Part shown: positions 225 through 2,003 of the stretch, one piece after another
Numbering within the stretch: position 1 is the first letter of the stretch
Layout: each line of letters opens with the position of its first letter
Origin: Naegleria gruberi
Lineage: Eukaryota
Strand: one strand, 5' to 3'
Length of the DNA stretch: 2,878 nucleotides
Assembly (NCBI GenBank): GCA_000004985.1
Contig: GG739241.1
The notes under the pieces: model-generated
What the model saw: the letters and a program-made list of their open reading frames with translations, nothing else
Databases searched by the model: none
Told to the model about the DNA's origin: nothing
Made by a program: the position numbers and the translations under genes

Positions 225-2003
225 TTAAATATAGAATTCATTAAGTGATGTTAATAATTTTGCTTCATCACTAATTCGATTGGCATAAACATCGAGTGAT
301 GTTAATTGTTTCATTTCACTTATGAATTTGGCTCCTGCATCACCAATTTCATTCTTAGAAATATCAAGTGATGTTAATTGTTTCATTTCACTTATGAATT
401 TGGCTCCTTCAACACCTATTTGATTGCCAGAAATATTAAGTGATGTTAATTGTTTCATTTCACTTATTGATTTGACTCCTTCATCATAAATTAGATTGCC
501 AGAAATGTCAAGTGATGTTAATTGTTTCATTTCACTTATGAATTTGGCTCCTTCACCACCAATTACATTCGTAGAAATATCAAGTGATATTAATTGTTCC
601 ATTTCACTTATAGATTTGACTCCTTCATCACCAATTCGATTGTTAGAAATATCAAGTGATGTTAATTGTTTCATTTCACTTATAGATTTGACTCCTTCAT
701 CACCAATTCCATTCTTATAAATAGTAAGTGATGTTAATTGTTTCATTCCACTTATGAATTTGGCTCCTTCACCATCAATTTCATTCTTGGAAATATTAAG
801 TGATGTTAATTGTTTGATCTCACTTATGAATTTGACTCCTTCACCACCAATTCGATTGTTAGAAATAGTAAGTGATGTTAATTGTTTCATTCCACTTATA
901 GATTTGGCTCCTTCATCATAAATTAGATTGTTAGAAATATCAAATGATGTTAATTGTTTCATTTCACTTATAGATTTGACTCCTTCATCACCAATTCGAT
1001 TGTTATAAATATCAAGTGATGTTAATTGTTTCATTTCACTTATCAATTTGGCTCCTTCATCACCAATTAGATTGCCAGAAATATTAAGTGATGTTAATTG
1101 TTTCATTCCACTTATAGATTTGACTCCTTCTACACCAATTAGATTGCCAGAAATATTAAGTGATGTTAATTGTTTCATTTCACTTATTAATTTGGATCCT
1201 TCTACATCAATTTCATTCGTAGAAATATTAAGTGATGTTAATTGTTTCATTTCACTTATTAACTTGGCTCCTTCACCACCAATTCGATTGTAAAATATGT
1301 CAAGTGATGTCAATTGTTTCATTTCACTTATGAATTTGGCTCCTTCACCACCAATTACATTCGTAGAAATATCAAGTGATATTAATTGTTCCATTTCACT
1401 TATAGATTTGACTCCTTCATCACCAATTCGATTGCCAGAAATATCAAGTGATGTTAAATGTTTCATTCCACTTATAGATTTGGCTCCTTCAACACCAATT
1501 ATATTGTTAGAAATATTAAGTGATGTTAATTGTTTCATTTCACTTATTGATTTGGCTCCTTCTATACCAATTCGATTGCCAGAAATATCAACTGATGTCA
1601 ATTGTTTCATTCCACTTATGAATTTGGGTTGTTCAAATGCATCAAGCGTCCAACTAGAAAATTTAACATTAACAATACAATTCATAAATTGACTCTTCCT
1701 GAATAATTCAATTCTCTTCAATGCAAATTTTTTTTTAAATTGAATAACAAGTTTTGAACGTTCCTTGATCACAGAAAGGAATTGTTTTGAAATCAAGGAA
1801 CAATTATTCAAAATAAACCACGAATCATCAATCATGCAAATTATTTCAAAACAAACATCATCCGAAAATATTTCTTGATCGAGTTTCACAATTTTTTTTG
1901 CTTTCTCTTCCAAATTATTATTATTATTATTATTATTAGTGAATATCTCCTCCGAATTAATGAATTGATGATTTTCAAAATCTTGTCTGTTTCGTTTGCT
2001 CAT
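225..2003 (-). CDS. F-box-like / leucine-rich repeat protein: N-terminal ~125-aa domain with poly-Asn tract and F-box-like motif, then ~19.5 tandem 24-aa RI/CC-type LRRs. Complete ORF, ATG at 2001-2003, TAA at 225-227.
   Basis: Seen in sequence: the longest ORF in the window (592 aa), ATG in an A-rich context (aaaaaaATG), TAA stop. The translation shows 19 consecutive 24-aa units fitting LxxLxLxxNxIGxEGAKxISEMKQ, the RI-like/LRR_6-type consensus. Residues ~41-86 (IFSDDVCFEIICMIDDSWFILNNCSLISKQFLSVIKE) align by eye to the F-box consensus LPdEIlleIfsyLdpkdLlrlrlVcKrWrslv. Residues 23-30 are N8. Product assignment is inferred from motif recognition, not from a database search. Confidence 0.85.
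   Translation of the reverse strand: MSKRNRQDFENHQFINSEEIFTNNNNNNNNLEEKAKKIVKLDQEIFSDDVCFEIICMIDDSWFILNNCSLISKQFLSVIKERSKLVIQFKKKFALKRIELFRKSQFMNCIVNVKFSSWTLDAFEQPKFISGMKQLTSVDISGNRIGIEGAKSISEMKQLTSLNISNNIIGVEGAKSISGMKHLTSLDISGNRIGDEGVKSISEMEQLISLDISTNVIGGEGAKFISEMKQLTSLDIFYNRIGGEGAKLISEMKQLTSLNISTNEIDVEGSKLISEMKQLTSLNISGNLIGVEGVKSISGMKQLTSLNISGNLIGDEGAKLISEMKQLTSLDIYNNRIGDEGVKSISEMKQLTSFDISNNLIYDEGAKSISGMKQLTSLTISNNRIGGEGVKFISEIKQLTSLNISKNEIDGEGAKFISGMKQLTSLTIYKNGIGDEGVKSISEMKQLTSLDISNNRIGDEGVKSISEMEQLISLDISTNVIGGEGAKFISEMKQLTSLDISGNLIYDEGVKSISEMKQLTSLNISGNQIGVEGAKFISEMKQLTSLDISKNEIGDAGAKFISEMKQLTSLDVYANRISDEAKLLTSLNEFYI
505..660. repeat. Higher-order near-identical duplicate block, ~2 LRR units, copy 1 (partner at 1297..1452)
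   Basis: Manual alignment of 505-660 with 1297-1452 gives ~155 bp with 3 mismatches (gttaat/gtcaat, gttaga/gccaga). The offset is 792 bp, exactly 11 x 72. Sequence flanking the block diverges at ordinary inter-unit levels. This is also reflected in the identical N-terminal 46 aa of the antisense ORFs 496..720 and 1297..1692. Confidence 0.8.
1297..1452. repeat. Higher-order near-identical duplicate block, copy 2 (partner at 505..660)
   Basis: Same alignment as above. In protein terms LRR units 3-4 (…SGNRIGDEGVKSISEMEQLISLDISTNVIGGEGAKFISEMKQLTSLDI…) are identical to units 14-15, differing only at one G/N position. Confidence 0.8.
1914..1937 (-). repeat. (ATT)8 / (AAT)8 trinucleotide microsatellite encoding N8 (residues 23-30) inside the CDS
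   Basis: 'attattattattattattattatt' read directly. On the coding strand it is eight consecutive AAT codons (TNNNNNNNNL). Confidence 0.9.

Follow-up and report, generated by a model that had tools for sequence, protein, structure and literature searches.

Among the closest described counterparts of the gene considered here are the GALA (RipG) type III effectors of Ralstonia solanacearum, which couple an N-terminal F-box or F-box-like domain to a C-terminal array of 24-residue leucine-rich repeats (LRRs). The GALA-LRR has been defined as a 24-residue unit featuring Ile5, Gly6, Asp7, Gly/Ala9 and Ala10, with apolar residues at positions 13, 19, 22 and 24, and it has been placed in the CC-LRR subfamily (Kajava et al., 2008; PMC2244805). 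The gene at issue lies in a 2,878-nucleotide stretch (hereafter “the window”) of contig GG739241.1 of Naegleria gruberi (GenBank assembly GCA_000004985.1), in which an intact 592-residue open reading frame (ORF; 225..2003, minus strand) encodes an N-terminal domain, nineteen LRR units and a short C-terminal tail. Our overall reading, to which we assign a probability of roughly 0.6, is that the array forms the LRR solenoid of a Naegleria F-box-like/LRR protein and has been homogenised by recurrent intragenic exchange.

The window protein shares with the GALA/RipG effectors the 24-residue repeat, the Ile-Gly-Asp and Gly-Ala signature and, in so far as its N-terminal part is F-box-like, the order of an N-terminal F-box(-like) part followed by LRRs. 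On the other hand, those are secreted bacterial effectors with the helix motif GAxALA, whereas the window gene is eukaryotic and features GAKxIS; the window F-box is too divergent for Pfam, and synonymous sites differ far less between the window repeats. The GALA/RipG proteins vary mainly on the convex face of the solenoid, while the window array varies also at strand-end and ascending-loop positions. Eukaryotic FBXL, or CC-LRR F-box, proteins (e.g., Skp2), which act as substrate receptors of Skp1–cullin–F-box (SCF) ubiquitin ligases, have a related LRR subfamily (PMC2244805) and, on the same condition, the same domain order, but their repeats are of ~26 residues with a conserved Cys, whereas those of the window protein are of 24 residues and lack that Cys.

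Concatenated LRRs have also been described for the lgr genes of Protochlamydia amoebophila, a symbiont of amoebae (Eugster et al., 2007; PMC2216083). These arrays have similarly been read as the outcome of adjacent unit duplication, but they are bacterial and built of 28-mers. More generally, Persi, Wolf and Koonin (2016; PMC5120217) report significant homogenisation in ~30% of repeat proteins, and find that a high ratio of nonsynonymous to synonymous divergence (dN/dS) between the repeats of a protein is the general rule. Their homogenised repeats combine high within-protein dN/dS with high similarity, as is seen here, although their study used orthologue comparisons.

Tandem Repeats Finder (TRF) returns a single array at positions 263-1627 of the window, with a period of 72, 19.0 copies, 85% matches, 0% indels and a score of 1811. 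Read in codon register, the array consists of nineteen 72-bp (24-codon) units running down the minus strand from position 1613 to position 246 (246..1613; 1368 bp of repeats), of the LRR_6 / GALA type and with the consensus EMKQLTSLDISNNRIGDEGAKFIS. At its end, in 225..317 on the minus strand, come a degenerate terminal unit (unit 18, with 76% identity to the consensus), then a truncated one, AKLLTSLNEFYI, and the stop codon. Pairwise DNA identity among all 19 units averages 84.7% (range 64-100%), and 86.3% when the degenerate last unit is set aside. Units 3 and 14 are identical, so that the 19 units comprise 18 different sequences. A higher-order period can be ruled out: TRF gives the period of 72 alone, and no lag is prominent except for one patch shared at a distance of 11 units. 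That 123-bp patch excepted, no exact repeat at a whole-unit lag reaches 60 nt.

The tandem array, then, is real, and the count of 19 units in perfect register given in a preliminary description of the window was exact. That description also called the array extremely homogeneous, which overstates the case, as mean pairwise identity is 84.7% and comparison 72-bp arrays match at 82-85%. The range it proposed, 241-1650, does contain the array, yet it also covers ~37 nt of non-repeat N-terminal cap, the truncated twentieth unit and the C-terminal tail. Its contrast with “most LRR proteins”, in which the DNA of individual repeats was said to drift apart, is weak for the 24-residue class: of four other 24-residue LRR_6 genes, three also contain 72-bp arrays, with matches of 82-85%, although these four were chosen by their similarity to a homogeneous query and do not provide an unbiased rate.

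The evidence that the likeness of the units reflects descent comes from synonymous sites. Serine is encoded by TCA at unit position 7 (18/18), by TCT at position 11 (14/15) and by AGT at position 24 (18/18). For leucine the codon is TTA (position 5) or CTT (position 8), for isoleucine ATT (positions 10 and 15) or ATA (position 23), and for glycine GGT (position 16) or GGA (position 19). The N-terminal part of the same ORF, by comparison, uses mixed codons for Ser, Leu and Ile. Where two units agree in an amino acid, they also agree in its codon in 94.4% of comparisons, the highest value among the compared genes. Other homogeneous 24-residue LRR genes give 92% (L025), 83% (L024) and 74% (L026), and a gene with the same N-terminal motif but drifted repeats and no TRF-detectable array (L023) gives 50%. 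Across the 15 framework codons of the unit, Nei-Gojobori estimates are 0.065 for dS, 0.027 for dN and 0.41 for dN/dS. Third codon positions are, moreover, more alike (identity 0.888) than first and second positions together (0.851), whereas L024, L026 and L023 display the reverse pattern. Because codons are specific to position in the unit, framework dS is low and third positions are more alike than first and second, the units are either of recent common ancestry or homogenised, and neither codon bias nor purifying selection on the protein accounts for the pattern.

An internal control for synonymous drift was available in a separate LRR-like coding fragment (LDIGGSEGAKHVSEMKHLTDLNI; LDIGGSEGAKHVSEMKHLTDLNICFIGNES) at positions 1-90 of the window, with context to ~170, on the minus strand in another frame and with stop codons before it. 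This fragment shares 12 of 18 codons with the array (67%). It lies downstream of the ORF stop and runs off the window edge; candidate identities are an exon, the next member of the family, or the remnant of an earlier array end that has since decayed.

What the preliminary description missed, and what is most informative, is that the differences between units are mainly amino-acid-changing and fall at nine positions. Overall dN/dS among units is 1.15 (Nei-Gojobori). The nine variable codons (1, 9, 11, 12, 14, 16, 17, 20 and 22) have a dN of 0.46 and a dS of 0.235. On the predicted structure, position 9 is the last residue of the strand; 11, 12 and 14 lie in the ascending loop around an invariant Asn; 16 and 17 are at the start of the helix; 20 and 22 are within it; and 1 is in the loop that follows the helix. 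The variability of individual positions correlates with that seen in units of paralogues (Spearman 0.59, P=0.003). Among the sites flagged in Ralstonia as under positive selection are GALA positions 4 and 15 (PMC2244805), the counterparts of variable positions 14 and 1 here.

Evidence for exchange between units is of several kinds. The pairwise identity matrix proposed in the preliminary description has been computed, and identity is uniform with distance: it averages 0.860 for adjacent and 0.868 for non-adjacent units, with no decay, and the Mantel correlation for units 1-17 is not significant (r=+0.13). A patch of 123 bp is exactly repeated at 520..642, where it takes in the last part of unit 15, the whole of unit 14 and half of unit 13, and at 1312..1434, where it spans units 4, 3 and 2; both copies are on the minus strand, 792 bp or 11 units apart. 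The patch has both of its ends inside units, with ordinary divergence around it, and no run in 1000 column shuffles exceeded 76. It arose either by conversion or by a transposed duplication of 1.7 units. Of the informative site pairs, 96 of 190 are incompatible with a single tree. Divergence, finally, is greatest in the terminal units: they match the consensus at 76% and 86%, the internal ones at 86-97%, as would be predicted if exchange spared the edges of the array.

In light of these data, the central proposal of the preliminary description, recent amplification or continuing homogenisation, holds up: there is no decay with distance, codon sharing stands at 94%, framework dS is 0.065, and the 123-bp patch is present. 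The contrast with other LRR genes that accompanied the proposal carries little weight. Identical DNA cores had been put forward as a sign of the process, and such cores do exist. The 29-mer core has nine exact copies, and 18 at no more than two mismatches, always spaced by 72 nt; no match was found in 200 dinucleotide-preserving shuffles. As a sign of homogenisation, however, the core is weakened by its content, much of its 29 nt encoding the invariant ISEMKQLTSL framework common to paralogues.

The repeats themselves are readily placed. Pfam LRR_6 (PF13516) matches the protein with 276.9 bits against a cut-off of 23.4 (E=3.9e-86) over 16 stretches, and L5, L8, I10, N13 and I15 are invariant or nearly so across 18 units. 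In an AlphaFold2 model based on an alignment of the protein with 12 relatives, the repeats reach a predicted local distance difference test (pLDDT) score of 96-97, and each of them forms one short strand (positions 7-9) and one helix (16-24). The top Foldseek match to this model is 9j7j, the LRR domain of Ralstonia RipG4/GALA4 (E=2e-20, target-normalised TM-score 0.86, root-mean-square deviation 2.2 Å over 348 columns, 30% identity), followed by the Chlorobium Roco LRR and ribonuclease inhibitor; the top matches in the PDB are all LRR domains. GALA positions 5, 6, 7, 9, 10, 13, 19, 22 and 24 correspond to positions 15, 16, 17, 19, 20, 23, 5, 8 and 10 of the present unit, and in that order the hallmark residues are found, among 18 units, as I in 18, G in 14, D in 8 (V and G also occurring), G in 18, A in 10 and V in 7, I in 18, L in 18, L in 16 and I in 18. 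Both by these residues and by the match of the predicted structure, the units are GALA-LRRs.

The ~130 residues that precede the array belong to a family for which we found no paper in the literature on a Naegleria F-box/LRR family. The closest relatives are N. gruberi LRR_RI proteins with the N-terminus MSKRNRQDFENH (P0121-P0124 and P0127; more distantly P0001, P0002, P0011 and P0014), which are like the window protein in the F-box-like motif, in the EMKQLTSL...IG.EG.K.IS unit and in the positions that vary. The start of the ORF, MSKRNRQDFENHQFINSEEIFTNN, is identical to that of P0121, the first 24 residues being the same, and over the non-repetitive N-terminus identity to P0121-P0124 and P0127 is 68-82%, P0127 (at 71%) having been added by a later profile search. 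None of these proteins resembles an orthologue, however; the best reaches 82% over the N-terminus, and the database models stop within the array, whereas the window ORF reads through 19 units to its stop codon. Over full length the best protein matches, again N. gruberi LRR_RI proteins, are at 43%, and the repeats of P0007 and P0010 are 71-72% identical to those of the window. An exact-protein look-up of the window ORF found no identical protein on record, nor did one for N. gruberi P0007, P0010 and P0001 return anything. On the protein evidence the window gene is thus an unannotated one of N. gruberi itself or that of a close relative. Out of 1.84 billion proteins the N-terminal profile recovers just 84 cluster representatives, and the family is lineage-restricted, to Naegleria-like amoebae; a profile search with the N-terminal alignment gained only two further proteins.

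The five closest paralogues, P0121-P0124 and P0127, have gene models of 215-263 residues, all of which end within LRR arrays. This suggests that the N. gruberi reference assembly or annotation breaks inside such arrays, and since the reference models are apparently truncated there, the repertoire is probably under-annotated.

The motif IFSDDVCFEIICMIDDSWFILNNCSLISKQFLSVIKE (residues ~44-85; 1749..1874, minus strand) is conserved across the Naegleria family and is the element that we describe as F-box-like. Among 13 aligned family N-termini, Pfam F-box-like is matched in nine and F-box in eight, with a best E of 4.3e-7. The more distant members have F-box matches with E of 1.7e-4 to 9e-3, which fall under the curated cut-offs. 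P0125, whose UniRef name is F-box protein, matches the family profile at 2.4e-12. Against PDB sequences the profile finds the F-box of FBXW11 alone, weakly (E=1.2), and a model of the N-terminal fragment (pLDDT 78) consists of a short helix followed by one long helix. The N-terminal domain of the window protein would thus be F-box-like through family membership only. Upstream of this motif, a run of eight Asn residues in the N-terminal region is encoded by an (AAT)8 microsatellite ((ATT)8 on the plus strand; 1914..1938, minus strand). The corresponding tracts of paralogues are shorter or interrupted (NNFNNNN, NNTN), so that the Asn8 microsatellite is probably length-variable.

Taken together, we envision a protein in which ~130 N-terminal residues with a lineage-specific F-box-like motif are followed by nineteen 24-residue repeats of GALA type (CC-LRR). 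Most likely it would recruit substrates, as an adaptor, to an SCF-type ubiquitin ligase, with docking on Skp1 through the F-box-like part and target binding through the LRR horseshoe. Units would be duplicated and deleted by unequal recombination, or copied in short gene-conversion tracts, or both, in events that are recent and probably recurrent. Such exchange would keep synonymous sites nearly identical along the array. Amino-acid differences, meanwhile, would persist or build up at nine exposed or semi-exposed positions per unit, along a path from the strand end through the ascending loop to the helix, and each turn of the solenoid would then present a different surface upon a fixed framework.

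Several results weigh against parts of this scheme. The incompatibility between sites is independent of their proximity in a test of the pairwise homoplasy index (PHI) type (P=0.74); with no such distance dependence, homoplasy arising from recurrent selection at a few sites could explain the reticulation without any recombination. Amino-acid identity is 0.74 within the array as compared with 0.66-0.73 to the units of six N. gruberi proteins, and the protein framework is therefore family-wide. The dN/dS of 1.96 at the nine variable codons is descriptive and no formal test of selection, as those codons were picked for varying. As for the N-terminal domain, Pfam gives no F-box match (PF00646 / PF12937) at E<=10 for either the window protein or its N-terminal 130 residues, and the N-terminal model has no significant match when its fold is searched against the PDB. 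SCF adaptor function, while the most likely, is drawn from FBXL proteins and the Ralstonia GALA/RipG effectors by analogy alone.

The alternative that we take most seriously, doubtful as we consider it, is a single recent burst of amplification, whether by replication slippage or by one unequal exchange, followed by point mutation under relaxed or positive selection. Homogenisation would then not be continuing, and the 123-bp patch would record one later duplication or conversion. A star-like origin of this kind fits the uniform, distance-independent identity of the units, the low framework dS of 0.065 and a PHI result short of significance, and most detectable homogenisation of repeats has been attributed to recent duplication rather than to other drives (Persi et al., PMC5120217). 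Yet a burst does not predict that dS should be 0.235 at variable codons when it is 0.065 at framework codons. The greater divergence of terminal than of internal units is, moreover, what one would expect from continuing exchange that excludes the edges, and the patch itself amounts to at least one exchange between distant units. We therefore favour recurrent intragenic exchange over the single burst.

Far less credence attaches to either of two further accounts. One would have the array be old, with its similarity maintained by strong purifying selection on the LRR framework together with AT-rich codon bias. It is true that the G+C content of the window is 29%, and that the framework EMKQLTSL-I--N-IG-EG-K-IS recurs in other N. 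gruberi genes at near-equal amino-acid identity. The account is contradicted, however, by the position-specific codons: one amino acid has different, fixed codons at different places in the unit, when the non-repeat part of the same ORF mixes its codons. Third positions are also more conserved than first and second, the opposite of L024, L026 and L023, the last of which, with the same framework, has a codon sharing of 50% and no TRF-detectable repeat. We regard this account as very improbable indeed. Scarcely better placed, and in our estimation highly unlikely, is the possibility of a partial assembly artefact, in which collapse, expansion or a mis-join through near-identical units shaped the array itself or its length and the order of its units. 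The 123-bp exact repeat could mislead short-read assemblers, and the breaks deduced from the five closest N. gruberi models, which end inside arrays, lend this some plausibility. But 18 of the 19 units differ in sequence, an indel-free reading frame stays open for 1.4 kb, and apart from the patch no exact repeat at a whole-unit lag reaches 60 nt.

Two of the compared genes with homogeneous 72-bp LRR arrays are of bacterial type and lie next to mobile-element genes. In L025 (1-2813, 6266-7362), the array gene adjoins a MobA/TraI-like relaxase and an rve integrase, and in L026 (308-2353, 3963-4229) it adjoins a resolvase and transposase fragments. This suggests that such LRR genes travel on mobile DNA.

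Searches for related DNA were without yield. The 29-mer core has no match in metagenome contigs. A degenerate 21-mer gave single matches in the metagenome, viral and bacterial/archaeal collections, which are rejected as chance, blastn and tblastn having shown no homology. Elsewhere in the window, a perfect 16-bp inverted repeat (2058-2073 / 2094-2109; TTTCATCATCACAAGC / GCTTGTGATGATGAAA), with 20 nt between its arms, lies ~55-105 bp upstream of the ORF ATG. It is overlapped by a sub-threshold CopA-like Rfam match that we dismiss as chance (26 bits against a gathering score of 60), and tRNA and Rfam scans of the window found nothing above threshold. Four stop-free plus-strand ORFs of 55-131 residues at 496-1692, antisense to the array (e.g., SSDVNCFISLMNLAPSPPI), are shadow frames of the repeat and not genes.

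The locus represents no new kind of system or mechanism; it is a well-marked but ordinary case within an undescribed, if unsurprising, gene family. One may entertain the broader notion of an LRR recognition repertoire in Naegleria that diversifies rapidly and includes this gene; the solenoids of its F-box-like adaptors would be continually reshuffled intragenically and perhaps intergenically, with diversity selected at exposed positions. We hold this to be improbable; were it true, the repertoire would be an amoebal counterpart of the diversification of plant NLR or lamprey VLR proteins, possibly directed against intracellular bacteria that have similar GALA-like LRR effectors. The locus does point to a small family of Naegleria-like amoebae, and if the reading of recurrent intragenic exchange is right, the window gene would offer a compact example of a repeat protein in which a rigid scaffold carries a varied surface while its synonymous sites are nearly frozen.

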